A stretch of DNA of 64,000 bases from Candidatus Levyibacteriota bacterium (GCA_016182185.1 JACOXU010000003.1:57974-121973); one strand, 5' to 3'; counted from the first letter of the stretch, positions 578-62,469 are shown. Numbers and translations are program-made. Notes: generated by a model from the sequence alone, not told the origin.

Positions 578-1780
578 TCATCCGCCTATTTTAAATTCTA
601 TAACATCACCGTCTTTTACTATATAGTCCTTCCCTTCAAGCCGCGCCTTTCCTTTTTCCCTCGCGCCTTTCCATCCTTCGCTTGCAACAAAATCTTCATA
701 TGAAACGACTTCTGCTTTAATAAATTTTTTCATAAAGTCTGTGTGTATAGTGCCGGAAGCAATAAGCGCGGTGGAACCGCGTCGAATGGTCCATGCTCGA
801 ATTTCTTTTTCTCCGCAAGTCAAAAAAGAAATCAAATCAAGCATCTCGTATCCTTTTTTTATTACCTTTTCAAGTCCGGATTCACCAAGCCCCAAACTTT
901 TAAGATATTCTCTTTGTTCCTCATCTGAAAGATCAGCCAATTCTGCTTCTGTTTTGGCGCAGACCGCAATAGCATCATCTGGGAATTTTTTATCTAAATC
1001 ATCTTCGGAAACATTGGCGATAAAAAATACCGGTTTTAGAGTAATAAGATTAAGATTTTTTACAGTTTCTTTTTCTTCCTCGGTTAAACCAATATTTTTT
1101 GCCAGTACCCCTTTATCTAACTGCGTTTTTAATTTTTTGATAATTTCCCAGCGCAACAAATCCTCTTTGGTTGCATTCATTCTTGGCTGCTGCTGTTTAT
1201 TTAAGGTTTCCAAATCGGCAAGAATCAGCTCAGTATCAACAGTGGTTCTGTCTTCACCGGGCTTTGGTTCTCCTGTTACATGCGTTATATTTGTATCTTT
1301 AAAATATCTTTGAACATGACAGATTAAATCTACTTCTCTTATGTGCGCCAGAAATTTATTTCCCAAACCCTCGCCCGCCGCTGCACCTTTCACCAATCCC
1401 GCAATATCGATAAATTTTACAGTTGCAGGAATGATCGGAGGCAAAACGGGTGACGCGAACGAAGGGTGCCCGAGGCGCGCATCTGCGTTCGCAGCGCTAG
1501 CAAGACTAGCAGGAGCACCTTGGGAAGAGTGAGCGGCAGGACCCTTTTCGCGAGCGGCCTCAGCGCCGATAATATATGCAAGCTTTTCCAATCTCTCATC
1601 CGGAACCGGAACAACCCCGACATTTGGTTCGATTGTCGCAAAGGGATAGTTTGCCACGAATGCAGTTTGTCTCTTAAGAAGTGCATTAAAGAGAGTGGAC
1701 TTCCCCACATTGGGAAGCCCAACAATCCCAATTGAAAGATTCACACATGAAATTATAACTAACCTAAAGTAAAGACGCAA
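578..1780 (-). CDS. ychF: ribosome-binding ATPase YchF (Obg-like GTPase) carrying an in-frame ~40-aa repeat-derived insertion
   Basis: G1 motif [28 protein letters not shown]...GLGNKFL, and a C-terminal TGS-like end ([14 protein letters not shown]). The annotated start is TTG; the true start may be the GTG at about 1738. Confidence 0.85.
1445..1564 (-). repeat. GC-rich palindromic repeat-element copy inserted in frame in ychF (encodes [14 protein letters not shown]...SFASPV)
   Basis: Local GC spike in an AT-rich gene. The 3' end TTTTCGCGAGCGGCCTCAGCGCCG matches the copies in prs, dnaX and the 61.0-kb intergenic copy. Contains the internal palindrome GCGAACG...CGTTCGC. Confidence 0.6.
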
Positions 1781-7510: not shown

Positions 7511-8395
7511 TGCAGCTGAATCACCAGGCTATTGCCCGAGGGGGTGAAATGACAACACCTAGTTCTTTCAGCCGAAACTGTCAGCGAAGCGCTCGCATCG
7601 CCGTCAAAGGGAGGTGAACCAGCGCGCAAGCGCTACTGTCGGGAGTGACTGTCTGGCGTCGGCGTGCTCAGGAACTGGCGGCAGAAGTGCCGGCAAGCCG
7701 ATCAGAGAAAAACACCCCTGCCTTTCCGCATCGCCGATGCAGGCCGTAGGTTAACGCAGTGCCCAGAACAACAGCTGCAATGATGGTCAGCTGAAGTGAC
7801 TGTGCATAACGAAGGATGTCGACGACGTCGCCGGTAATCGATGAGACGATCCAGCTGTCACGCAGGCTCGTTGGCGTCTGCGGAATCGTAGTAACTGGAG
7901 AGTCCCGAGATGAGCCGGTGATCGAAGAGTCAAGACCCACGTCATTGGTTAATGGACTATGAGCCATGCTCATGGCGCCGATGTCCGTGCAGTCGTGCGA
8001 TCCGCATGAAGCAGCCGTGTTGTCAGCAATGTCGGCGCTGTTGCGGATAGAGTCGTCCAGACCCTGACCTGACGTGAACGGGTGTAATATTCCCTGGGAC
8101 ACGTCCAGATTGACGATGGTCGCCTGAGACGAACTGGCGAGAGAGACTTCGGGACTTGCTCTGGCTTGCGGAGTCAAATGCTGACTGGGCATCAAAGCGA
8201 AGAAGCCGCAGATAGCAGCAAGTGCCACACACGCCATGAGTCCAAGAAGAGATCTCCCCTGTCGACATCTTACTGTCTCAAAGGACATAAGACCTCCTGT
8301 TACGGACCTGTCGGGATTGATATATTAAATTGTGATGAATCCGATAAACACCTCCGTATTGTGAATTTGGTGCAAATGCAAGAGTTCCCCCCGCC
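7481..8395 (-). mobile_element. GC-rich cassette-like island 1, bounded by inverted repeats AGAGGGGGGAAACTCT / AGAGTTCCCCCCGCC (putative; mobility unproven)
   Basis: Sharp GC shift (about 55-60% against about 35% in the flanks). A 12-bp inverted repeat sits at the inner boundaries. The same architecture with different cargo recurs at 23026..24281. Confidence 0.4.
7668..8288 (-). CDS. hypothetical membrane protein (cargo of island 1)
   Basis: 206-aa ORF with N-terminal and C-terminal hydrophobic helices. AGGAGGT lies 4 nt before the ATG. In GC-rich DNA long ORFs arise by chance, so coding status is uncertain. Confidence 0.4.
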   Translation of the reverse strand: MSFETVRCRQGRSLLGLMACVALAAICGFFALMPSQHLTPQARASPEVSLASSSQATIVNLDVSQGILHPFTSGQGLDDSIRNSADIADNTAASCGSHDCTDIGAMSMAHSPLTNDVGLDSSITGSSRDSPVTTIPQTPTSLRDSWIVSSITGDVVDILRYAQSLQLTIIAAVVLGTALTYGLHRRCGKAGVFFSDRLAGTSAASS

Positions 8396-11119: not shown

Positions 11120-11325
11120 TTACTGACTACTGATGGAAAATTTGGGATCCTTAGGGTCAAAAGCGTTTATATTTTTCGTAGCATCTAAAATCTCAATTCC
11201 CAAAACTTTTCCCTTCTTATCTTCATCCATTAAGATAGCATCGGAAATTTTCCGCGTACTCTCATATCCCCCTTTGCTAATTCAATATATACTGCGTCAA
11301 CTTTTGTATCGTATTTAAATTTCAT
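11120..11325 (-). pseudogene. DUF2283-family gene disrupted by a frameshift at a G5 homopolymer
   Basis: Reading frame 1 gives MKFKYDTKVDAVYIELAKGD... An alternative frame continues ...STRKISDAILMDEDKKGKVLGIEILDATKNINAFDP, the DUF2283 signature, to a TAA at 11120. Frame switch at GGGGG near 11255. Confidence 0.5.
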
Positions 11326-22799: not shown

Positions 22800-23050
22800 T
22801 CCAAAAACAAACACCCTGCTTATTTTCAAAGGAAAAGAGAGAAGAAATAATGAAAGGTAACGATGACCAGCTTGATTCAGACGCAATTGCCTGAGTAGCA
22901 GTCAAGGAAACCTGACAAAATTTTGTGAGCCTTCTCTCCTGGTAAATGTAATGGGAATAAGTTTGCATTGGAGTCTCCTTTCGGATTAACATGGCTGTTA
23001 ATTGATCCGCCAAACGCAGAGATTTGAGAGGGGGAACTCTCACACCTGCA
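22800..23050. repeat. conserved AT-rich arm (3' side of cargo gene), copy 2; homologous to 7291..7510
   Basis: See copy 1. Ends GAGAGGGGGAACTCTCACACCTGC, immediately followed by the stop codon of the fbp-like gene. Confidence 0.6.
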
Positions 23051-24281
23051 CTAGCGGGGTTGTTGCTCCGTCTCGGGCGGAGGAGGTGAACCTGCAGGTA
23101 CAGGTTGCACCCTTGTGGTAGAAGCCGCTTCCTCATCGGATAGTGGCGTCCATCGGTCGGCGAGCTTTTTGGCAACGTCCGGCATGGTTGTGTATTCCAT
23201 CTCCTCCAAGGGAAGACGGTGGGGTTCGAATGGTCCGTGCTTACGCAGGTAGTCGGCGATATCGTTGGCCTCCTGGCGGACGTTGTCAAAACCCGGGTCG
23301 TCGAACATGTCGTTCGGGCCAATAAGCTTGCCGTTTGCAAGCTGAAATCCCAGCGACACGAGTCGCGGCGGGCCGTCGAAGCGGCTCGGGTGTGCGTCTT
23401 TCAAGCCAACAGGCATAAGCGGCCCATGGTGGGATCCGCGCATCCAGCCCTCAACTGTCCACGCAGTGGTGAACGGTTCGAGCACTTCGCCCACAGCCGG
23501 GAAATTTCCCTGACAGCGAACGATCATGGTCGGGTCGTCCTTGCCAACGTAGCGGCCGGCAATCATGGACAACTTGTCCGTGCTGGAACACGCAGCGATC
23601 TCACCGGAGTCACGATGGCGCACGCGCTTTACGGCGTAACGCTGTCCAGAACCGATGAAGACGAGCATGTCGTAGATCTCATCCGGCGCGTTAAGCGTGA
23701 CCTGCAGGTGCTCCTTGACGTCCTGGACTTCGAAGGAAAACCCTCCATGGAGTGGCGCTCCGATAACGAGCCCCGGCGTGTTGAACGGATCCGCGAACAT
23801 CTTGTAGAGCGGCAGGTTGAAAGCTCCGGCTGAGGTCTTGTCGCCCATGAAGACGATGATTGGCTCTGACGGCCGCTCGTCGATCTCCATTTCGGCCGAA
23901 CCGGGACCTGCTCCCTTGATGTTACCGCTGAATGCGTCCGTCAGAAGGTCCTGGCCTGCGCCGTAAAGCTTGAGCTTCTTGGCCAGTTCCGTACCCTTGA
24001 CAAACGTGTCCCACGCCAACTTGTGGATCTCTGTGTTGTTCTCGCCACGATCGTGAGTCATGATGAGAAACATGTCGTCTCCACAGTGGCTGACGTGACA
24101 ATCGACAAGAACTCCGGCCTGCTTTGCCTTCTCCAGCTCTTCACGACCGAGGTCGAGAATATCCGGATGAGACGAGCAGTGGCCGACCATTCCGCCGATA
24201 TCCGCTTTTATGACAGAAATTGTAACCAAAATTCCTCCTTGTTAGCTTTTGAATGGTGTAGATGTAAGAGTTCCCCCCGCC
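23026..24281 (-). mobile_element. GC-rich cassette-like island 2, bounded by the same inverted repeats as island 1 (putative; mobility unproven)
   Basis: GGGGGAACTCT at 23031..23041 and AGAGTTCCCCCC at 24267..24278. Cargo GC is about 60%. Confidence 0.4.
23051..24229 (-). CDS. fbp: fructose-1,6-bisphosphate aldolase/phosphatase (class V FBPase, archaeal-type bifunctional)
   Basis: N-terminal MVTISVIKADIGG and internal YKMFADPFNTPGLV, WMRGSHHGPLMPV, RFDGPPRL and EMEYTT are signature motifs of FBP aldolase/phosphatase. AAGGAGG lies 5 nt upstream of the ATG. Confidence 0.85.
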   Translation of the reverse strand: MVTISVIKADIGGMVGHCSSHPDILDLGREELEKAKQAGVLVDCHVSHCGDDMFLIMTHDRGENNTEIHKLAWDTFVKGTELAKKLKLYGAGQDLLTDAFSGNIKGAGPGSAEMEIDERPSEPIIVFMGDKTSAGAFNLPLYKMFADPFNTPGLVIGAPLHGGFSFEVQDVKEHLQVTLNAPDEIYDMLVFIGSGQRYAVKRVRHRDSGEIAACSSTDKLSMIAGRYVGKDDPTMIVRCQGNFPAVGEVLEPFTTAWTVEGWMRGSHHGPLMPVGLKDAHPSRFDGPPRLVSLGFQLANGKLIGPNDMFDDPGFDNVRQEANDIADYLRKHGPFEPHRLPLEEMEYTTMPDVAKKLADRWTPLSDEEAASTTRVQPVPAGSPPPPETEQQPR

Positions 24282-27224: not shown

Positions 27225-27656
27225 TTACCTTGAGGCAGAGATATTTGGTGACCCTTCAGTACCGCAAGCTTTTACTGTAACAAGACCGGCAGCATTTACC
27301 ACAACAGAATATCCTGTTAAAGCAGCTGTGCCATTACTCGGATCTAATGGAATAGAATTGAGATAATTAGCAAGAGCACCGCTAAGATCTACACAGCCAT
27401 TAGTAGCTCCTACGTTGCAGCCACCTGTTGCAATAGCGCAATTAGCAGCTGTAGGTTCAGTACCGATCTGTTTTTCGACCATGCCGGCCGTAAGGCCAGA
27501 AGGAAGAGCACCAGCATTGTCTACGATTGAGGCATGAATGGCAGTCAAGATACTTTGAGTATCAGAAACTCTCTTGGCATCTCTTGTATCCTCGAGTCTT
27601 TGGGCAGGATTTAAGGCTACAAAGACCACGACTGCCAAAACTGCGATAATTGCCAT
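27225..27656 (-). CDS. type IV pilin-like protein lacking a prepilin leader (paralog A)
   Basis: Starts MAIIAVLAVVVFVALNPAQRLEDTRDAKRVSDTQ, corresponding to pilin helix residues ~7 onward. The first ~110 nt of coding sequence are identical to paralog B. Confidence 0.6.
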   Translation of the reverse strand: MAIIAVLAVVVFVALNPAQRLEDTRDAKRVSDTQSILTAIHASIVDNAGALPSGLTAGMVEKQIGTEPTAANCAIATGGCNVGATNGCVDLSGALANYLNSIPLDPSNGTAALTGYSVVVNAAGLVTVKACGTEGSPNISASR

Positions 27657-27700: not shown

Positions 27701-28132
27701 TTATCTTGAAGCAGAAATTGTGGTTGCTCCTTCAGTACCGCAGGCTGTCACTGTCACAAGTCCTGCAGCACTGACCACTACGCTGTAACCTGTTTCTGCG
27801 GCTGTATAGGTGGTTCCTCCCGTTGGATCGATTGGAATAGTATTCAAGTAATTGGCAAGAGGAGTAGTTAGATCAACACATCCGGTTGGAGTTATCGAAC
27901 ACACGCCCACTGTTCCTCCGCAACCGGTTGCCGCTGTTCCGATTTGAGTCTGTGACATGCCTGCAGTAAGGCCAGAAGGAAGAGCACCAGCATTGTCTAC
28001 GATTGAGGCATGAATAGCGGTAAGAATTGTTTGGGTATCAGAAACTCTCTTGGCATCTCTTGTATCCTCGAGTCTTTGGGCAGGATTTAAGGCTACAAAG
28101 ACCACGACTGCCAAAACTGCGATAATTGCCAT
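27701..28132 (-). CDS. type IV pilin-like protein lacking a prepilin leader (paralog B)
   Basis: Identical N-terminal 36 aa, divergent C-terminus. TTGACA-18-TAATAT promoter with the ATG 7 nt after the -10 (leaderless). Confidence 0.6.
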   Translation of the reverse strand: MAIIAVLAVVVFVALNPAQRLEDTRDAKRVSDTQTILTAIHASIVDNAGALPSGLTAGMSQTQIGTAATGCGGTVGVCSITPTGCVDLTTPLANYLNTIPIDPTGGTTYTAAETGYSVVVSAAGLVTVTACGTEGATTISASR

Positions 28133-28231: not shown

Positions 28232-28600
28232 TTAATTAGTTTGCTGCCATGATGTCACAGTTACGGAATAATCCCGGTTTGCCAGAATAGTGAAGTATTT
28301 TCCATAAGTACTGCCGAAAGAATTTATATAAATAGTATAATTACCAGCCCCGTCTGAACTCCATAAAATATTGCAATCACCTTCAGGTAAATTTACTGCT
28401 ACAGGATTCGTATTTGATCTTAATCGAAGCAACAATTCCTCTGCACAGCTATCTTGCAGATTGAGCTTTTGCTCTGCTTTGGTCAAAGAAAGAGCCGTCT
28501 GTCCTTCCCCAATAGAAAGATAGGAAACCGTAACTGCGATTACAAAAACAACGGCTGTAATAATTATAATGCTTGATATTGCCAAATAACCCTTCTGCAT
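28232..28600 (-). CDS. minor pilin-like protein (non-canonical prepilin N-terminus, no Glu5)
   Basis: MQKG|YLAISSIIIITAVVFVIA: short leader ending in Gly followed by a hydrophobic helix. Confidence 0.45.
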   Translation of the reverse strand: MQKGYLAISSIIIITAVVFVIAVTVSYLSIGEGQTALSLTKAEQKLNLQDSCAEELLLRLRSNTNPVAVNLPEGDCNILWSSDGAGNYTIYINSFGSTYGKYFTILANRDYSVTVTSWQQTN

Positions 28601-28601
28601 A

Positions 28602-29141
28602 TTAATTACTCCTTATCTCTGCATCACTGCTTATGCTTGTAGACGCATTATTCTGATTTCCTGACCCAAATTTTGAAGTGACTGTCAGGATAAACTGGAT
28701 ATTTTTTGTTTTGTAATCAGACGAAGAGTAATTGGTAAATTCAAGATTTGTATAGGTATTTCCTGAATTAAGCGGAACAAAGCTACCAGTTCCTTGCCTT
28801 ACCAAAACTTGTCCTCCTCCGCCTCCAATAATCCATGTAGGATTCGTGGCTGGATTTGAAGTATTAAGTATTATCATTGTTGGGAAGAAAGCGCTGACTC
28901 CCGTCGCATTTCTCACTTCGTATTTAAGTCTTTCTGCTATGTAACGCGCCTGAGAATTCACTTCCTGCTGTACTGCGCTTTTGCGGCTTGATAAAATCAT
29001 ATCCCAGGAAAAAGGTATTATTGTAACCAGCATCATTACAAATATTGACACATATAGAATAAGCTCTATAAAAGTGAAGCCTTTTTGATTATTTAATAAT
29101 TTATTACTGTTATTTTTCATTATTCTGTCAGATTCCTCCAA
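28602..29141 (-). CDS. prepilin-type N-terminal cleavage/methylation domain protein (minor pilin)
   Basis: ...NQKG|FTFIELILYVSIFVMML is a canonical class III signal. Confidence 0.65.
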   Translation of the reverse strand: MEESDRIMKNNSNKLLNNQKGFTFIELILYVSIFVMMLVTIIPFSWDMILSSRKSAVQQEVNSQARYIAERLKYEVRNATGVSAFFPTMIILNTSNPATNPTWIIGGGGGQVLVRQGTGSFVPLNSGNTYTNLEFTNYSSSDYKTKNIQFILTVTSKFGSGNQNNASTSISSDAEIRSN

Positions 29142-31081
29142 AATGCGAATGAAAACGGACTGCTTATTGTTTGTGATAACGATGATGTAATTCCGCCCGT
29201 ATCGGAATTAGTCCAAAATAAATAATCGGTTATTCCAATACGCAGGAACCATAATCTTTTTGCATATAATGAATTACTGCTGTCCGTAACGAAAAATAAA
29301 AATTGATTTTGAGTAATTGGATTCATTTGAATGTCGTACCATCTCTGACTGGTCGTGAAAAGCGGAGATGGCGCCCAGTCCGTTTGAAGCGTAAATGCGC
29401 CTCCGCTGCCTGCATACCAGCCGATGTTACCTGCTCCGCTGTCATGATAGGCAATCACATGTTTATTATAAGTTGTAAAGACCAGCCATCCCGTGGACAC
29501 CAATTTTGTCCCGGCCGAAGGTGCGGCGGTTGTAGTATCTGCAATCGCCGGTGAGTTCCAGACGGTTCCGTTCCAGTAAGCAAGTTGCAATCCCGGAGTA
29601 TTTGAGCCAACCGAACCAAGTATAATCTCATTTGAGGCAGCAGAGGGATTTGCCGAGATATCTAAATTTACCGCGTCGTTGGTAGTAAGCGTTATTATCG
29701 AACCCCATGAACACCCGGTATAAGTTGCTGCCCCACCGTTATTGGTACATATAGTATATTTTGTTCCGTTTGAAGCATTTCTTCCATGCCCTGTTGCGTA
29801 TCCCCACATTACCATAACATTACCTGACTGACTCATATACTCAACATCAAAATTATCCACATCCTGTACAGTACTTATATTCTCCAGTGAATTTTCCAGA
29901 GTGCTTCCCTGAACCCAGGAATTGCCTGTAGGATCCCAGACGGCATTTGACAGGCCGGATCCGTCATCGGCATAAATTGCCGTTATTAAATTGGAGCCTA
30001 TCCTTCTGTCCCATGCCATTTTCACCCATTGAATTATTCCTTTGGGCTGAGTAGGATTATAATTCACCTGCACTGACCAGTTTGCGCCTCCGCAGCCTAC
30101 TGATCCTGATTTAGTTCTATATGCCAGTTCATTTGTTGGTTTGTTGTTTGTGCTGTAAAGCACTACAATCTTACCAGAATTTGTTTCATAGGCAATATCA
30201 AATCTTCCTGTCTCCCCCGTTCCGCCTACAACTGCAGACCAATCCTGTGTCCACTCGTATCCGTCAAAACACATTATATATAGTATGCCTGAAGAATCGA
30301 CATATCCTGCAACAGCTTCTGATCCAGTCGGAGAAGTTCTGACAAGAAAAGTCCGGGTTTGTGTTCCTGTTGGAATAGGTGTAGGCATAGAGACCTGTTT
30401 TGAAAATTTAGTATTTAAAGCAGTCTCAAATATTCTATGTTTAACCACATCGGTTCCGTCTCCATACATTAAAAGACCTCCTTCCGTAATAATCGGTTTT
30501 TTGAAACTAGTAAGATAATTTATAAGAACAACAGAATTTTGCCGCGCCGCACTAAAATTCCAAGTGACCGTTGAAGTGATCTTCTTTGTATTTTTATCAA
30601 GCGCACCTCCACTTGTAACTATATTTCCTCCTGATCGATAGACATCTTCAACTTTGATAACTCTTTTATATTTGTTATTGGATCCAAAATAATTCTCGGT
30701 TCCGTAAAATTCCCAAACATTTCCTGCTGAACGCCTCACTCCGGTACCACTTGAGCTTACTAAATACTTATAATTTTGATTTCTAACGGATCTTGCTGCT
30801 TCAAGCCCTTCGCTGGCAAATTGAGTAGCCACAGCCTGCTCTCCCCCAAGTCTATTTGAAGAAAGAGCCTGAAGAACTATGCTGATTGCACCTGATGAAA
30901 AAATTACAAATAAAGTCGCAGCCAGAATCAATTCAATTACGGAAAACCCAGTATCAAAATTTCTAATTGACTTAATTCCTAATTGATCTAAAAAAATTCC
31001 AAATCTAAATTTTCTATATTTGCCTCTTGGTGCTTTATTAGAAATTAGATTAATTAGAGTACTTAGAAATTGTTTTCTCAT
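29120..31081 (-). CDS. large prepilin-like protein (653 aa; candidate tip or adhesin pilin)
   Basis: ...RNFDTG|FSVIELILAATLFVIF prepilin motif after a long leader. Large Gly/Ser/Thr-rich beta-rich body. Confidence 0.6.
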   Translation of the reverse strand: MRKQFLSTLINLISNKAPRGKYRKFRFGIFLDQLGIKSIRNFDTGFSVIELILAATLFVIFSSGAISIVLQALSSNRLGGEQAVATQFASEGLEAARSVRNQNYKYLVSSSGTGVRRSAGNVWEFYGTENYFGSNNKYKRVIKVEDVYRSGGNIVTSGGALDKNTKKITSTVTWNFSAARQNSVVLINYLTSFKKPIITEGGLLMYGDGTDVVKHRIFETALNTKFSKQVSMPTPIPTGTQTRTFLVRTSPTGSEAVAGYVDSSGILYIMCFDGYEWTQDWSAVVGGTGETGRFDIAYETNSGKIVVLYSTNNKPTNELAYRTKSGSVGCGGANWSVQVNYNPTQPKGIIQWVKMAWDRRIGSNLITAIYADDGSGLSNAVWDPTGNSWVQGSTLENSLENISTVQDVDNFDVEYMSQSGNVMVMWGYATGHGRNASNGTKYTICTNNGGAATYTGCSWGSIITLTTNDAVNLDISANPSAASNEIILGSVGSNTPGLQLAYWNGTVWNSPAIADTTTAAPSAGTKLVSTGWLVFTTYNKHVIAYHDSGAGNIGWYAGSGGAFTLQTDWAPSPLFTTSQRWYDIQMNPITQNQFLFFVTDSSNSLYAKRLWFLRIGITDYLFWTNSDTGGITSSLSQTISSPFSFAFWRNLTE

Positions 31082-31572
31082 CTGCTTGCCACCCCCTGAC
31101 TATTTACAGTTATCGTCTTTGTTTCTGAATTTCCCTGAATTGAAATACTGCCGGAAGAAGGATCTGGCAAGCCTGTCATTCTTGCAAATAAAATATCTGT
31201 CGTCCCTGTTATGGAAATATTCGGATTTACAGTGAATTTTTCATCTAAAGCCTGATTCCTAAGAGCAAAAGAGGTTCCGCTGAAAAGTGTGATCGTACCT
31301 GTTGCGTAATGTACACCCCAATTATTTGAATTTTTACTCATCATAGCGTACATCTGGGCTTTTCTTAACGATCCGATATATTGATCCTGAACGTCTGAAA
31401 CCGTATTCTGAATCAGGAAATTGGTGTAAAAATTTGCCGAGAAAGTTCCGATCAGAAGAAAAATTGCTGTTGTTAATATCAATTCGATTAAAGTGAACCC
31501 CAATCGGGATTTAGGACCTGCCTTGCCGACAGGCAGGTTTATGATATACGATTTATGATTTTCTTTATCCAT
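31078..31572 (-). CDS. type IV prepilin (candidate major pilin) with long leader
   Basis: ...GPKSRLG|FTLIELILTTAIFLLIG, a canonical G/FTLIE class III signal peptide. Confidence 0.7.
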   Translation of the reverse strand: MDKENHKSYIINLPVGKAGPKSRLGFTLIELILTTAIFLLIGTFSANFYTNFLIQNTVSDVQDQYIGSLRKAQMYAMMSKNSNNWGVHYATGTITLFSGTSFALRNQALDEKFTVNPNISITGTTDILFARMTGLPDPSSGSISIQGNSETKTITVNSQGVASR

Positions 31573-55599: not shown

Positions 55600-56209
55600 T
55601 CCTTAAGGTTACATCGTCTGCGTATTCAAGATCTGCTCCAATCGGCAACCCCCTGCCAATTCTGGTAATTTTAACAGTTTTGAGTTTTGAGTTTTGAGTT
55701 TTGAGTTCGCCAAATTTCTTGGCGATGTACATTGCCGTTGCTTCGCCCTCCATTGTTGGATTTGTCGCCAAAATTACCTCTTGAATAAGTGATCCCGAAC
55801 CGTTTGACGATTTTTTCACCCTGTCAATTAGCTGCTTTATATAAATTTCATCTGGTCCAATATTGTTCAGAGGATCAATCTTTCCATGTAATACGTGGTA
55901 TAGCCCGTTATATTTTCTGCTTCGCTCAAGTGAAATCACATCCAGAGGTTGCTCCACTACGCATATAATTGAATTGTCTCTCTTCTCATCACTACAGATA
56001 GAACAGGGGTCAGTTTCTGCAATAGTAAAACACTCGGAACAAAGTACAGTATCTTTCTTAAGATTCTGAACTGAGGCTGAGAATTTATCAAGTTCGCCTT
56101 GCGGAACATGAAGAAGATAAAAAGTCAGCCTCTGTGCGGTCTTGGGCCCAATACCCGGTAATTTTTCAAATGATTCAATAAGATTTTGAATTGCTTTTGG
56201 AATCCGCAT
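55568..56209 (-). CDS. recR: recombination protein RecR
   Basis: HhH (LPGIGPKTAQRL), C4 zinc finger (CSECFTIAETDPCSIC) and a Toprim domain. Contains an in-frame GTTTTGA x4 repeat. Confidence 0.9.
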   Translation of the reverse strand: MRIPKAIQNLIESFEKLPGIGPKTAQRLTFYLLHVPQGELDKFSASVQNLKKDTVLCSECFTIAETDPCSICSDEKRDNSIICVVEQPLDVISLERSRKYNGLYHVLHGKIDPLNNIGPDEIYIKQLIDRVKKSSNGSGSLIQEVILATNPTMEGEATAMYIAKKFGELKTQNSKLKTVKITRIGRGLPIGADLEYADDVTLRNALEGRRIYE

Positions 56210-56215
56210 AAAATT

Positions 56216-56295
56216 TCTAATTACTTTAATTTCTAATTAACCTAAATAAATTCTAAAAGCAAAATTTAGAAATTAGGTCAATTAGGTTAATTAGG
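56216..56295 (-). promoter_or_regulatory. AT-rich promoter repeat with tandem TTGACCTAAT units (upstream of recR)
   Basis: Minus strand: TTGACCTAATTAACCTAATTGACCTAATTTCTAAATT...ATG. About 85% similar to 61476..61542. Confidence 0.45.
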
Positions 56296-57330
56296 TCAAT
56301 TTTTTCCTAGTTCTTTTGCTATTTTTCCGCTGACTGATAATATTTCCAGTTTATCAAACCCCTTCTCTCTTGGTACATTTATTGAATCTGTAACATAAAT
56401 CTTTGAAACTTTTGAGCTCTCTAAAATGTTTTTTGCATCATTTGACAGAACTGGATGAGTTACAAAAACTAGAATTTTTTCTATGCTATTTTTTCTAAGA
56501 AGGTCTGCTGCTGCTGCAATTGTCCTGCCGGTTGAAATCATATCATCGACAATAATAGCGGTTTTAACTCCTTTTTTCCATTCTTGACCAGAAACATCTA
56601 CTCTGTTTGATTCTATATTTCCTGTCGCAAGATCTCTGTCTTTAATAATTGAGACATAAGACATATTATCAAGCATTTCTGACAATAATTTAATTCGTCT
56701 TATTCCGCCCATGTCGGGAGAGACGAGGATCGTATCGTTGATGCGCGGGGAGCTTTCAAAATTTTCATTGCGAGCATTTACGCTATCTGACTTTGGGATT
56801 TCGGATGAAACTTTTCTCGCGTTGCGAACAGGAAAATTTTCGCGAGCGACCTCAGCACTCCTCAGAATTTCTTTTATTTTCTCTGCAAAAATTGGCAGAG
56901 CAGATAGATGAACAATCGGAATAGAAAATAGTTCAGGGATTTTGACTGAATGAAGGTCAAGCGTTATAAGACGATTCATTCCAACGCTCTCAAGAGTTTC
57001 AACAATCACTTCAAGAGACACTGCCTCACCGTCTCTGAAGATATGGTCTTGTCTCTGATACCCAAGATATGGAACAACGGCAGTAACAGTTTTGGCTCCG
57101 CTTCTTTTGAGTGCATCAACTATAAAAAATAATTCCATGTAACAATCATTGGGATTTGGAGAAGTAGTTTGGATCACAACAGTATCCTCATTTATTACTT
57201 TATCAACAACTCTTACTCTTTTTTCCCCATCTGGGAAAATATCAATTTCAAGAGGAGATAAGCTGATTTTTAATTCTTTGGCAATTTTTTCTGCCAATGG
57301 CTTATTGGAGCTACCAGAAAAGATCTTCAC
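56296..57330 (-). CDS. prs: ribose-phosphate pyrophosphokinase carrying an in-frame ~40-aa repeat-derived insertion
   Basis: N-terminal Pribosyltran_N and a PRPP-binding loop (AIIVDDMISTGRTI). Insertion ...SAEVARENFPVRNARKVSSEIPKSDSVNARNENFESSPR... before the VSPDMGG motif. Confidence 0.85.
   Translation of the reverse strand: MKIFSGSSNKPLAEKIAKELKISLSPLEIDIFPDGEKRVRVVDKVINEDTVVIQTTSPNPNDCYMELFFIVDALKRSGAKTVTAVVPYLGYQRQDHIFRDGEAVSLEVIVETLESVGMNRLITLDLHSVKIPELFSIPIVHLSALPIFAEKIKEILRSAEVARENFPVRNARKVSSEIPKSDSVNARNENFESSPRINDTILVSPDMGGIRRIKLLSEMLDNMSYVSIIKDRDLATGNIESNRVDVSGQEWKKGVKTAIIVDDMISTGRTIAAAADLLRKNSIEKILVFVTHPVLSNDAKNILESSKVSKIYVTDSINVPREKGFDKLEILSVSGKIAKELGKN
56737..56860 (-). repeat. 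palindromic repeat-element copy inserted in frame in prs
   Basis: GCGCGGGGAGCTTTCAAAATTTTC...CGCGTTGCGAACAGGAAAATTTTCGCGAGCGACCTCAGC. Near-identical in sequence and position-in-frame to the dnaX copy. Confidence 0.65.
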
Positions 57331-58887: not shown

Positions 58888-60303
58888 TCACCCCCTTAAT
58901 AATACTGACATTTTAACTTTTTTTCCAGTAATTTCTTCTATAACTTTTTCAATCAATGTCCGAACCCTTACATCTTCTAACTTTTCTTTATGAAATTTGA
59001 ATTTTGCTTCAATCTCAAGTTTTTTCCCGTCAAAGTTTTTAAGAATACATCCTCTGAGAAGCCCTGCTGCAGAATGGTTGTGAGGTTTTACTTTGGCAAT
59101 AAGTTGAGCAAAAATATCTTGGCGCGGGAAGCTCACAAAATTTTCTCTGTTCGCGTTTGCGCCATCTGACTTGGGGATTTCGGGCAAATTTTTTCCCGCG
59201 TTGCGAACAGGAAAATTTTCGTGAGCGACCTCGGCGCCAATACACCACTCAACAATTGCCATTTCAAGCGGCATTTGTGGCAAAACCGCAAATTTCAGTT
59301 GAGAACTTGCCCTTACAAAGAGTTCTGTTAACTCTTTTATTTCATCTAAGCTTAATGACGCCTCTGGTTCTTTGTCCTTAACAACACCTACATTTATCAA
59401 AAGCAGTTCATGCATTTTAAGTATCAGTTGTTCGAGAAAAAATTTCATATCAATTCCCTGCTCTGTCATTTTCCCCACCATCTCAAGACTCCCTTTTACA
59501 TCTTTTTCTGTCAAAAGCCTGAACATCCCTGAAATATAAGATGATAAGTTTGAAATTTGAAATTTTTTCTCAACTATTTCCTTGGTAATTTTCCTGTTTC
59601 CGATTCCTGAATGTATTTCTTCAAGAATCTTGACTCCGTCCCTAAAGCTCCCGTCGGAAAGATCAGAAATTGCCGAAAGTGCATCCTTATCTATGGAAAT
59701 TTTTTCTTGTTTTGCGATTCTTAAGAATGAACGAATTAACTCATCCATGGTTGCTCTCTTAAAAACTATATGGAAACAGCGGGATACAATTGTCGCCGGA
59801 ACTTTATGAGGTTCAGTTGTGCAGAGAATAAACACTACATGATTTGGGGGCTCCTCAAGAGTCTTCAAAAGCGCATTGAATGCCTCAGTGGTAAGCATGT
59901 GAACTTCATCAATAATATAGATTTTTTTATGGGCTCCTGCTGGGGACAGTCTTACCTTTTCACGCAAATCCCTTATCTCATCAATTCCTCTATTTGATGC
60001 TCCATCAATCTCTAAAACATCTATATTGGTTCCATTTGTAATCGATACGCATTGAGCACATTTATTGCAGGGCTCCAAAACTGACTTTTGACTTTTGCCT
60101 TTTGACTTTTGCCTTAATTTTTCGCAATTAACTGCCTTCGCTACAATTCTTGCCGCAGATGTTTTGCCTAAGCCTTTAGGCCCAGTAAAGAGAAGCGCAT
60201 GAATCGATGATTTTTTTGCCAGAAAAGCCGTTAGCTTTTCACGAACCTCACTATTGTCGAGTTCATCTATTTTTTGAGGTCTGTATTTACGATAGAAAAC
60301 CAT
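58888..60303 (-). CDS. dnaX: DNA polymerase III subunit gamma/tau, with an in-frame repeat-derived insertion and a short tandem repeat in the Zn-finger region
   Basis: Walker A GPKGLGKTSA, DEVHML, and sensor motifs. Insertion ...GAEVAHENFPVRNAGKNLPEIPKSDGANANRENFVSFPR... Confidence 0.9.
   Translation of the reverse strand: MVFYRKYRPQKIDELDNSEVREKLTAFLAKKSSIHALLFTGPKGLGKTSAARIVAKAVNCEKLRQKSKGKSQKSVLEPCNKCAQCVSITNGTNIDVLEIDGASNRGIDEIRDLREKVRLSPAGAHKKIYIIDEVHMLTTEAFNALLKTLEEPPNHVVFILCTTEPHKVPATIVSRCFHIVFKRATMDELIRSFLRIAKQEKISIDKDALSAISDLSDGSFRDGVKILEEIHSGIGNRKITKEIVEKKFQISNLSSYISGMFRLLTEKDVKGSLEMVGKMTEQGIDMKFFLEQLILKMHELLLINVGVVKDKEPEASLSLDEIKELTELFVRASSQLKFAVLPQMPLEMAIVEWCIGAEVAHENFPVRNAGKNLPEIPKSDGANANRENFVSFPRQDIFAQLIAKVKPHNHSAAGLLRGCILKNFDGKKLEIEAKFKFHKEKLEDVRVRTLIEKVIEEITGKKVKMSVLLRG
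59113..59237 (-). repeat. palindromic repeat-element copy inserted in frame in dnaX
   Basis: GCGCGGGAAGCTCACAAAATTTTC...CGCGTTGCGAACAGGAAAATTTTCGTGAGCGACCTCGGCGCC. Confidence 0.65.
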
Positions 60304-60956: not shown

Positions 60957-61019
60957 ACACCCCCTTCTTAAAACAAAATTCCAAAATCTAAATCTCGAAT
61001 TCCAAATAAACTTAAATTA

Positions 61020-61145
61020 TGCTGTGCGGGGAGCTTTCAAATTTTTGGAGCACGCATTTGCGCCTTCTGAGTTTCTATTCTAAGCAAAGTTGCCCGCTCT
61101 GCGAGCGCACAAAAATTTCGGAAGCGACCTCAGCATAGCCCTATT
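61020..61145. repeat. intergenic copy of the palindromic repeat element (between rpsU and the HIT gene)
   Basis: TGCGGGGAGCTTTCAAATTTTTGG...GCGAGCGCACAAAAATTTCGGAAGCGACCTCAGC. Same termini as the prs and dnaX copies. Confidence 0.6.
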
Positions 61146-61148
61146 TTA

Positions 61149-61475
61149 CTACATTTTTACTTTTTTACCGACCGGACCGACTACATGAAAATGTAAATGG
61201 TCGATAATCTGCGCTCCCCCTCCGTTTAGTACAAGTCTATAGCCCTTATCCTTAAGCTCTGTTTTCTTTACCATTTTTTGAATAGTATTTGCCAATTTAC
61301 CAAAAAGTTTATCATTTTTAAGTTCCAAAAAATCGGTTATATGTTCCTTCGGAACTACCAAGAGATGGGTTGAGGCAATCGGATTTATATCCGAAAATAC
61401 CATTATTTCATCATCTTCATAGGTAAAATCCTTTGGAATTTCTTTCTTTGCAATTTTGCAAAAAATACAATCCAT
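61149..61475 (-). CDS. HIT (histidine triad) family protein
   Basis: MDCIFCKIAKKEIP... N-terminus and the HLHFHVVG histidine triad. Confidence 0.85.
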   Translation of the reverse strand: MDCIFCKIAKKEIPKDFTYEDDEIMVFSDINPIASTHLLVVPKEHITDFLELKNDKLFGKLANTIQKMVKKTELKDKGYRLVLNGGGAQIIDHLHFHVVGPVGKKVKM

Positions 61476-61542
61476 AAAATTTCTAATTATTCTAATCTGT
61501 AATTAACCTAAATGACTTGAAAATTAGGTCAATTAGGTCAAT
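61476..61542 (-). promoter_or_regulatory. AT-rich promoter repeat with tandem TTGACCTAAT units (upstream of the HIT gene)
   Basis: Minus strand: AAATTGACCTAATTGACCTAATTTTCAAG...ATG. Confidence 0.45.
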
Positions 61543-62469
61543 TTAGATTGTCTCTAGCACTTTTATTATATCACTCAATGACAATCTGGTTGCTTTCATC
61601 TTAGGGTTTTTAACCGAGCCGTTTAAAAGCATTTTCTTACCAACATGCAGGAACCATGTTGCCTGGGGATCTACTTTACTGAGTTTTTCATAGGTCAGAG
61701 TCAAGTCTATGTCTACATTTTTCGTATCTTCGGGTTTTTCAAAAACCATGCTCTCATCTCTTGGCCGTGCTTTGATACGGACATAACCCTTTCTCGGATC
61801 CTTACGAACTACCAAAACGTATCCCTTTTTTTGCGCGAGCTTGATGACTGAATCATTGATAGTTTCAAAACCTATTCCTTCACCAAATCTAGTTTTAAAT
61901 TTTATTCCTTTTCCGATTTCTTTTTCTGCCCAAATTTTATTCTCAAACTCATGCAAAAGCGCATCGAGATTTCGACTCATAAAGTCAACATAAAATTCAT
62001 CATGGTCAGGCTTTTCTATCTTAAGCCCATCCAAAATTCCAATAAGTGAAAAGTCGTGATAATCAGCAACGGGGTTTTCCCAAAAAACTTCCTTAAAATG
62101 ATCTATGTCAACAATTATTTTTATCAATCTTTCAAGCGCAGATAGCTTCTCAGGACTTATAGCTTGATTACGCAAAAGGTGTTCAGCTTTAACAAAGTCA
62201 AGTGTAAGACTTGCAGCACAAACCTTGTCACTCGCTGTCTGGTGATGATCCAAAGGTCCTAATCCAGTATCTACATGAATCACTTCATCATTATTTATAT
62301 TTTCTATCGGACCTCGTTGATTAGGCGCAAGTACGACATTTTTAAACCGTTCACCAGCCGGTACAAATTCTACTTTTGCGCTTTCCCACCCCGGCATAAA
62401 TTTTTTGATCACCCAGACAGATGAAACTGCATCCAAATCCGGTGATGAATGCGTAACTATAATTTTCAT
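61543..62469 (-). CDS. DHH-family phosphoesterase (NrnA-like)
   Basis: THSSPDLDAVSS matches DHH motif I-II (H-x-x-P-D-G-D-A). Confidence 0.6.
   Translation of the reverse strand: MKIIVTHSSPDLDAVSSVWVIKKFMPGWESAKVEFVPAGERFKNVVLAPNQRGPIENINNDEVIHVDTGLGPLDHHQTASDKVCAASLTLDFVKAEHLLRNQAISPEKLSALERLIKIIVDIDHFKEVFWENPVADYHDFSLIGILDGLKIEKPDHDEFYVDFMSRNLDALLHEFENKIWAEKEIGKGIKFKTRFGEGIGFETINDSVIKLAQKKGYVLVVRKDPRKGYVRIKARPRDESMVFEKPEDTKNVDIDLTLTYEKLSKVDPQATWFLHVGKKMLLNGSVKNPKMKATRLSLSDIIKVLETI

Follow-up and report, generated by a model that had tools for sequence, protein, structure and literature searches.

The gene for ribose-phosphate pyrophosphokinase (prs) in the DNA analysed here, a stretch of 64,000 nucleotides that we call ‘the window’, contains within its reading frame a copy of a dispersed palindromic repeat, which also occurs in unrelated genes and between genes. 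We consider it probable that the repeat is a non-autonomous palindromic element of the RPE or MITE kind, specific to Levybacteria and related Patescibacteria, that survives inside genes as a translated and tolerated loop. A preliminary description of this DNA had proposed the copying of one DNA repeat rather than convergent evolution of proteins, and the non-coding copies with stop codons, the covarying stem and the many unrelated hosts reported below bear this out. It had also called the transposition ‘recent’. That word finds poor support, as the prs copy and its counterpart in dnaX are only ~80% identical overall, and the prs hairpin has lost most of its stability.

In-frame ‘protein-coding palindromes’ have so far been treated as a peculiarity of Rickettsia. 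The Levybacteria element behaves in the same way, belongs to an independent, unrelated family, and resides in free-living or epibiotic ultra-small bacteria, where prs, dnaX, topA and a leuS-like gene are among the essential genes that it occupies. The element offers a second natural system in which to follow the arrival and persistence of selfish repeats in proteins, and part of the length variation and lineage-specific insertions of host proteins may be due to it. Annotation and phylogenetics are affected, because insert-bearing linkers are homoplastic and the repeats break assemblies. It also poses testable puzzles: the occupation of one Prs linker by several families, and a decay that is slower than neutral.

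The repeat in prs and elsewhere in the window

The window is A+T-rich (~37% G+C). A profile HMM built from the window copies finds four of them, all on the minus strand; these, their hosts and one related empty site are as follows.

56296–57330, minus strand: prs, ribose-phosphate pyrophosphokinase, an intact ORF of 344 aa
56739–56861 (56741–56859 in a second nhmmer run), minus strand: prs copy of the palindromic repeat (family A), located by nhmmer
58888–60303, minus strand: dnaX, DNA polymerase III tau/gamma subunit, host gene assigned by Pfam
59118–59240, minus strand: dnaX copy, in frame, DnaX residues 356–395, in the linker before the C-terminal domain
61019–61138, minus strand: intergenic copy, ~10 nt past the stop of a co-oriented HIT-family gene (61149–61475)
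1447–1572, minus strand: divergent, G+C-rich putative copy in ychF (578–1780), in frame, residues ~72–111
61543–62469: ORF of 308 aa with no Pfam match and a DHH-like motif (GLGPLDHHQ), an empty-site orthologue

The host gene is assigned to prs by phmmer (E = 2.5e-49 to B. subtilis Prs) and by its Pfam domains, Pribosyltran_N, Pribosyltran and Pribosyl_synth, and its product is identical to an NCBI MAG protein annotated as Candidatus Levybacteria (candidate phyla radiation). The repeat, ~120 nt long, encodes Prs residues 158–197 (SAEVARENFPVRNARKVSSEIPKSDSVNARNENFESSPRI) in the inter-domain linker that directly precedes the VSPDMGG loop. Residues 160 and 161 of B. subtilis Prs (1dkr) are contiguous at the place where the window Prs has ~39 unmatched residues, and in about 65 of 120 Levybacteria-type orthologues only a linker of 6–16 residues is present there. 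The preliminary description placed the in-frame segment at 56737–56860, and credited Prs with ~43 extra residues. The latter number is right as the total difference in length, since Levybacteria orthologues with an empty site are ~300 aa long compared with 344 aa in the window; the element itself accounts for 39–40. In an AlphaFold2 model of the protein (overall pLDDT 83), the helix before the insert is prolonged to residue 164, and residues 171–193 fall below pLDDT 50, from which we infer a mostly disordered loop at a putatively permissive surface linker. The same prs gene, insert included and identical in sequence, was assembled independently in contigs of four sequencing runs, and so the insert is not an assembly artefact. 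No tRNA lies near it.

An in-register alignment of the prs and dnaX copies gives 79.8% identity across 119 nt, which drops to 28.0% and 27.0% in the 300-nt flanks, and the edges of the similarity are sharp. The preliminary description had named as its refutation an identity between the two segments no higher than that of the surrounding coding regions; the comparison, ~80% against 27–28%, goes the other way. It had also quoted a 36-mer as near-identical in the two genes, and 35 of the 36 bases are indeed equal. This 36-mer has exactly two matches in the window (56818–56853 and 59197–59232) and none in 100 shuffles. It is an arm of the repeat that is conserved family-wide, in distant genomes too, and its near-identity is therefore uninformative about age.

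The dnaX copy is the best-preserved hairpin of the window, and sits where an alignment of DnaX orthologues shows the linker to be variable. The intergenic copy has a stop codon in the frame that genic copies use. The ychF copy combines an A-type left terminus (GCGCTGAGGCCGC) with a B-type interior, aligns with family-B copies (family B is described below) from contigs L072, L007 and L057, and falls at YchF residues 75–115, a stretch that the solved H. influenzae protein (1jal) lacks. By sequence its membership in family A appears weak, because a family-A HMM built without it does not recover it. The empty-site ORF at 61543–62469 encodes a protein 62% identical to the product of a gene in L040/L064 that carries the element after ‘…PAGER’. 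Two further palindromes of the window, at 11135–11253 and 22907–22934, have arms resembling GGAAAATTT and were rejected as copies of the element.

Other repeats are present in the window. An A+T-rich leader of 70–110 nt, with CTAATT/AATTAG motifs and containing AATTGACCTAATTT, occurs three times (30940–31085, 56195–56300 and 61460–61545). Two of the three end at the ATG of the minus-strand gene downstream of them, recR and the HIT-family gene, respectively, and the third lies at the start of the ORF at 29120–31081; the leader looks like a shared promoter or operator region. The four short-read Logan contigs that carry this prs, L001–L004, all end within ~25 nt past the gene, at this leader, which probably breaks the assemblies. 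Two repeat pairs (7282–7362/22791–22871 and 8368–8433/24254–24319), 66–81 nt long and 82–83% identical, flank a class V fructose-1,6-bisphosphatase gene (23051–24229; Pfam FBPase_3) as well as an unannotated ORF of 206 aa (7668–8288). The upstream repeat contains a palindrome, TTGACAAG/CTTGTCAA, bracketed by CCCCGC/GCGGGG, and the pairs are possibly a shared regulatory site. Finally, tandem paralogues of 143 aa with a pilin-like hydrophobic N-terminus (27225–27656 and 27701–28132) have 5′ parts that are 90% identical and diverged middles, and adjoin other pseudopilin-like ORFs (28232–29141).

Structure, distribution and reading frame of the family

To collect family members, the left arm was searched as an exact pattern in two scans, of a set with one genome per species and of JGI metagenomes, and the matches were filtered with nhmmer. 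This gave 49 distinct full-length copies, 104–125 nt long, in MAG and metagenome contigs of Levybacteria and Patescibacteria. The true matches are in contigs labelled Levybacteria or ‘Patescibacteria group’, plus two MAGs labelled ‘uncultured Gammaproteobacteria’ (contigs L012, L020 and L074; assemblies CAYZEE01 and CAYPAU01). The gene order on the CAYPAU01 contigs is that of Levybacteria (HIT-ybeY-dnaX-ybaB-prs-recR), so that this MAG is very probably mis-binned, and the two bins are probably mislabelled or contaminated. First-scan matches in Verrucomicrobiota, Fibrobacter, Marinomonas, Hadarchaeum and others consist of a 21-nt word without the full element, and were set aside as chance. Searches elsewhere returned little. 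No Rfam family matches the element at the gathering threshold or at E <= 1, and blastn finds no match to it in plasmid and phage collections. An alignment search of an index of 5.8 billion proteins, in which the element peptide shares too few words, gave no match. A profile search of 1.84 billion representatives with two window peptides gave six matches, of which three are true, namely a further FolC, occupied at the same position, together with two fragments; a profile of 40 aa is too weak, and hence unsuited to a census.

The element lies inside at least 12 unrelated, mostly housekeeping, genes. Pfam identifies as hosts Prs, DnaX, TopA (at two sites), DprA, a FolC-type Mur ligase, a GT1 glycosyltransferase, WecG/TagA and Tgt, with YchF as host of the variant copy; a LeuRS-like synthetase and another Mur ligase were recognized by eye.

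The termini of the repeat are conserved (GCGCTGAGGTCGC…GAAAATTTTC … GAAAATTTTG.AAGCTCCCCGCGC), and the family consensus reads 5′-(GGC)GCTGAGGTCGCTNNCGAAAATTTTC … variable centre of ~55 nt … GAAAATTTTGNAAGCTCCCCGC(GCC)-3′. They form terminal inverted repeats, GCGCTGAGGTCGC… and …GCTCCCCGCGC, that pair and covary. In a stem model of 21 pairs, 96% of the cells in 43 aligned copies are standard pairs. Both partners have changed in 84 cells, compared with 25 ± 3.9 in shuffles (none of 500 reaches 84), and sliding the stem partners by 1–3 columns leaves at most 24 such double changes. The invariance of the left arm is in part forced, because both scans required it. The three outermost pairs, which alternate between CG/UA, GC/UA/AU and AU/UA/GC, lie outside the search patterns, and so the signal is not forced by ascertainment. 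Prs orthologues found through protein similarity share the AEVA.ENF start.

‘Palindromic’, the term used in the preliminary description, thus suits the family on account of its covarying stem, and suits the prs copy less well. The dnaX copy folds at −52.5 kcal/mol (z = −6.05), whereas the prs copy, at −27.9 kcal/mol (z = −0.33), folds no better than shuffled sequences, nor do the intergenic and ychF copies (z = −0.17 and −0.57, respectively). Within a palindromic family, then, the prs copy is a member whose hairpin has eroded. Shorter versions that retain both termini exist as DNA of 88, 78 and 37–44 nt, the last a termini-only form found in L015/L045, and Prs orthologues with linkers of the type AEVA…SPR and a shortened middle mirror them in protein. 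A decay series generated by internal deletion is plausible.

Within genes, the 22 sense copies are without exception free of stop codons and of in-frame length, and all (22/22) are read in one common frame of a long ORF, to yield the peptide G-AEVA.ENF…ENF.SSPR. An in-frame length and freedom from stops are found together in 9 of the 26 non-coding copies. A single genic copy is antisense, in frame within a membrane protein of 544 aa, where it encodes an unrelated peptide. Orientation in genes is accordingly 22 sense to 1 antisense, although 15 of the 22 have an open antisense frame. Non-coding copies are also oriented. A co-oriented ORF ends 2–63 nt upstream of 18 of 25 of them, a proportion that overstates their independence, because some of these loci are orthologous to one another. 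A simple selective filter for open frames accounts for neither the genic nor the non-coding bias in orientation. Strand-specific insertion relative to replication, or a role for the sense-strand RNA, are possible causes.

History of the prs linker and origin of the repeat

The closest relative that we found, L030, has a Prs 78% identical to that of the window and carries a copy of the same subfamily at the same prs site. Its copy has 81% identity with that in the window prs and 80–83% with that in the window dnaX; the three share a lineage-specific centre, with identities of 77–83% in the central region. From this sharing it follows that copying between prs and dnaX took place around or before the split of the two lineages, or that the copies have been homogenized by gene conversion. 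More generally, a copy usually finds its nearest relative at another host site (85–91% central identity); between genomes, copies that share a site are only 42–71% identical. Two copies in one genome can differ down to 51–57% identity in the centre.

An NJ ordering of 120 Prs orthologues, made with the linker removed and not a rigorous test, intersperses empty linkers, family-A inserts, truncated family-A inserts and at least three other types of insert. The element-bearing proteins P0016 and P0081 nest among orthologues with conserved, short, empty linkers. Given these scattered states among the 120 sequences, we judge a single ancient insertion into prs to be unlikely. The linker has been occupied sporadically and by several families, and the history of the site is consequently more complex than one recent hop. 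The other inserts (e.g. at L072:8454–8591, L073:4334–4546 and L074:8454–8645, and in proteins P0005, P0009, P0038 and others) belong to further families. Family B, a related, G+C-rich palindrome, encodes GPVRSFPPASA…AVGSPSTSATPR and is found also in dnaX of the same genomes. Family C (ARLPH.ENDA…RSLSESRQ) is an unrelated palindrome. Family D (ALRS..Q..FSNASVPA…KSPRA) is palindromic as well, and has the termini of family A read one base out of register. The DnaX linker of L072 (6660–6900) is a mosaic in which a family-B copy is followed directly by the right half of a family-A copy, and suggests nested insertion or recombination between elements. L034 (8941–11023) has a tandem pair of prs genes, encoding proteins of 319 and 340 aa, with the element in the second only.

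The element changes slowly. In orthologous pairs of prs it is 81, 72 and 72% identical, compared with 77, 69 and 65% for the remainder of prs; third codon positions, at 55, 45 and 41%, are far below it. It is thus not decaying neutrally; constraint, homogenization or re-insertion is needed, and pure ‘junk’ does not fit. These observations are consistent with an old family in which turnover continues, through re-insertion, gene conversion or both, and there may be some constraint on the element.

According to the explanation that we favour, copies would arise from site to site, by transposition with an enzyme acting in trans and/or by gene conversion between copies. Essential genes would retain only those copies that lack a stop in the host frame, span a whole number of codons, and fall in a permissive surface linker; in prs, this would be the inter-domain linker before the PP-loop strand. 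The insert would be transcribed and translated with its host and tolerated by Prs as a mostly disordered loop, while internal deletions and point changes would slowly erode the hairpin, as has already happened to the prs copy. Co-oriented copies just past stop codons may act as putative 3′ hairpins. No transposase was found for the element. Nor was a target-site duplication: no direct repeat is evident at the element ends, the variable outermost bases are inverted complements, and in topA, where empty and occupied sites can be set side by side, none is seen, the sites being too diverged to define one. Across all loci (~0.6 Mb), no pair of left and right arms more than 160 nt apart bounds a longer element. 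With no transposase, parent element or target-site duplication, mobility is deduced from distribution; as only ~0.6 Mb is covered, the absence of a cognate autonomous IS is weak evidence.

Several other explanations compete with this one. Ongoing transposition might play no part, a few ancient insertions having descended vertically and been homogenized by conversion or recombination, with existing palindromes attracting further pieces to give mosaics. In its favour, many lineages have the same linkers occupied in prs, dnaX, topA and the GT gene, the L072 DnaX linker is a B/A composite, and the L030 prs copy and the prs and dnaX copies of the window have a lineage-specific centre in common. Nevertheless, we find it rather doubtful, given occupied sites that nest among conserved empty linkers, the many distinct host and non-coding sites, and copies within one genome that have diverged to 51–57% in the centre. 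Somewhat less likely still is that the element is kept for a function of its own, whether as an RNA hairpin (a processing site, stabilizer, terminator or translational pause) or as a peptide module. Its stem covaries, it is conserved above the third codon positions of its host gene prs, its orientation is biased relative to transcription in genic and non-coding copies alike, non-coding copies start 2–34 nt after stop codons, and its hosts are enriched in genes for information processing and nucleotide metabolism. Yet the prs, intergenic and ychF copies, with z-scores of −0.2 to −0.6, fold no better than shuffles, AlphaFold2 gives the peptide no confident structure, and many orthologues have no insert or only truncated remnants. 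Compact genomes, moreover, bring any intergenic element near to a stop codon, and a conserved, active master copy or gene conversion would also account for the slow apparent decay.

Two further accounts fare much worse. An ordinary lineage-specific protein insertion under selection for its peptide, with the similarity to dnaX DNA as a by-product, would explain why the ends AEVA.ENF and ENF.SSPR recur across host proteins. However, copies of this DNA lie outside genes too, with stop codons and frameshifts in them, family D reads the same termini in a different frame (ALRS…), the antisense in-frame copy gives an unrelated peptide, and it is pairing in the DNA that covaries, not codons. The non-coding, antisense and family-D copies rule out convergent selection on the peptide, and this account as a whole is very improbable. 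Most improbable of all is an intron- or intein-like intervening sequence that is excised before a functional protein results, or else an artefact of assembly. Introns in rRNA and tRNA genes are a known feature of Patescibacteria, according to the part of one preprint available to us (bioRxiv 10.1101/2025.07.03.662931). But Rfam offers no match even at E <= 1, introns of group I or II are larger than 120 nt and inteins longer than 40 aa, and the keeping of frame and absence of stops in 22 of 22 genic copies would be needless if the insert were spliced out; assembly of the identical sequence from four independent runs speaks against an artefact.

A more radical proposal seems to us distinctly unlikely, less so than the two accounts just described. 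The same surface linkers of essential proteins in Levybacteria might be rewritten again and again by an orientation-specific mechanism that recognizes hairpins, such as single-strand transposition of the HUH type or hairpin-templated conversion directed at palindromes already in place. The elements would then be more than tolerated, being kept by selection as RNA or peptide modules. If true, this would be a lineage-wide engine of protein-linker evolution in ultra-small bacteria.

Comparison with known systems

We found no description in the literature of in-frame palindromic elements of this kind in Patescibacteria. The element is not a self-splicing intron or an intein: it has no Rfam match, adds an insert of 40 aa, and preserves the frame. 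REPs are extragenic sequences of ~20–40 nt, defined by their link to a RAYT (Y1/HUH transposase) gene. The Levybacteria element resembles them as an imperfect palindrome with conserved mismatches and an orientation bias, and its minimal, termini-only version is 37–44 nt long. It differs in that the full element is ~120 nt and often genic; with full copies of this size and 22 of 49 in genes, we do not place it in a REP/RAYT system.

Closer in size are the small dispersed repeats of other bacteria (e.g. ERIC/IRU, BOX, RUP, SPRITE and Correia), which have been found fused to ORFs (PMC3184786; PMC10969869). Like these bacterial MITEs, the Levybacteria element is small, hairpin-forming and multi-copy, often lies just after genes, and is sometimes fused to them in frame. 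MITEs, however, are mainly intergenic, and for them in-frame insertion into an essential gene is exceptional, whereas 22 of the 49 copies described here are internal to genes. Moreover, no target-site duplication was seen for the Levybacteria element, nor, in ~0.6 Mb, a cognate IS.

The closest parallel is with the Rickettsia palindromic elements, RPE-1 to RPE-10 (Ogata et al. 2000 Science 290:347; 2002 Genome Res 12:808; PMC10969869; PMC3184786). As described in the last two of these sources, RPEs are palindromes of 105–146 bp that lie in frame in unrelated genes, encode a conserved peptide, and are compatible with the fold of the host protein (PMC10969869; PMC3184786). The two systems have much in common. 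Both consist of palindromes of ~105–150 bp, present many times in a genome, in intergenic DNA as well as in housekeeping genes unrelated to one another; those in genes keep the frame and encode a conserved peptide; and neither system has a known transposase. Insertions of RPEs appear compatible with the host fold, and those in Levybacteria may be so too, as they fall in linkers without counterpart in solved homologues and, in the predicted Prs structure, in a loop of low pLDDT. Transcription has reportedly been shown experimentally for RPEs, and here the two differ, as the Levybacteria element is known from sequence alone. The Levybacteria element is not a member of the Rickettsia RPE families, given the different phylum of its hosts, the restriction of true matches to Levybacteria and Patescibacteria contigs, and the lack of any blastn match in the plasmid and phage collections. 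RPEs belong to an intracellular alphaproteobacterium, whereas the hosts here are Levybacteria (Patescibacteria). What further distinguishes the Levybacteria system is that its linkers have been occupied repeatedly, by several related and unrelated palindromic families and sometimes by mosaics of them, and that the termini of the element are used in two reading frames.
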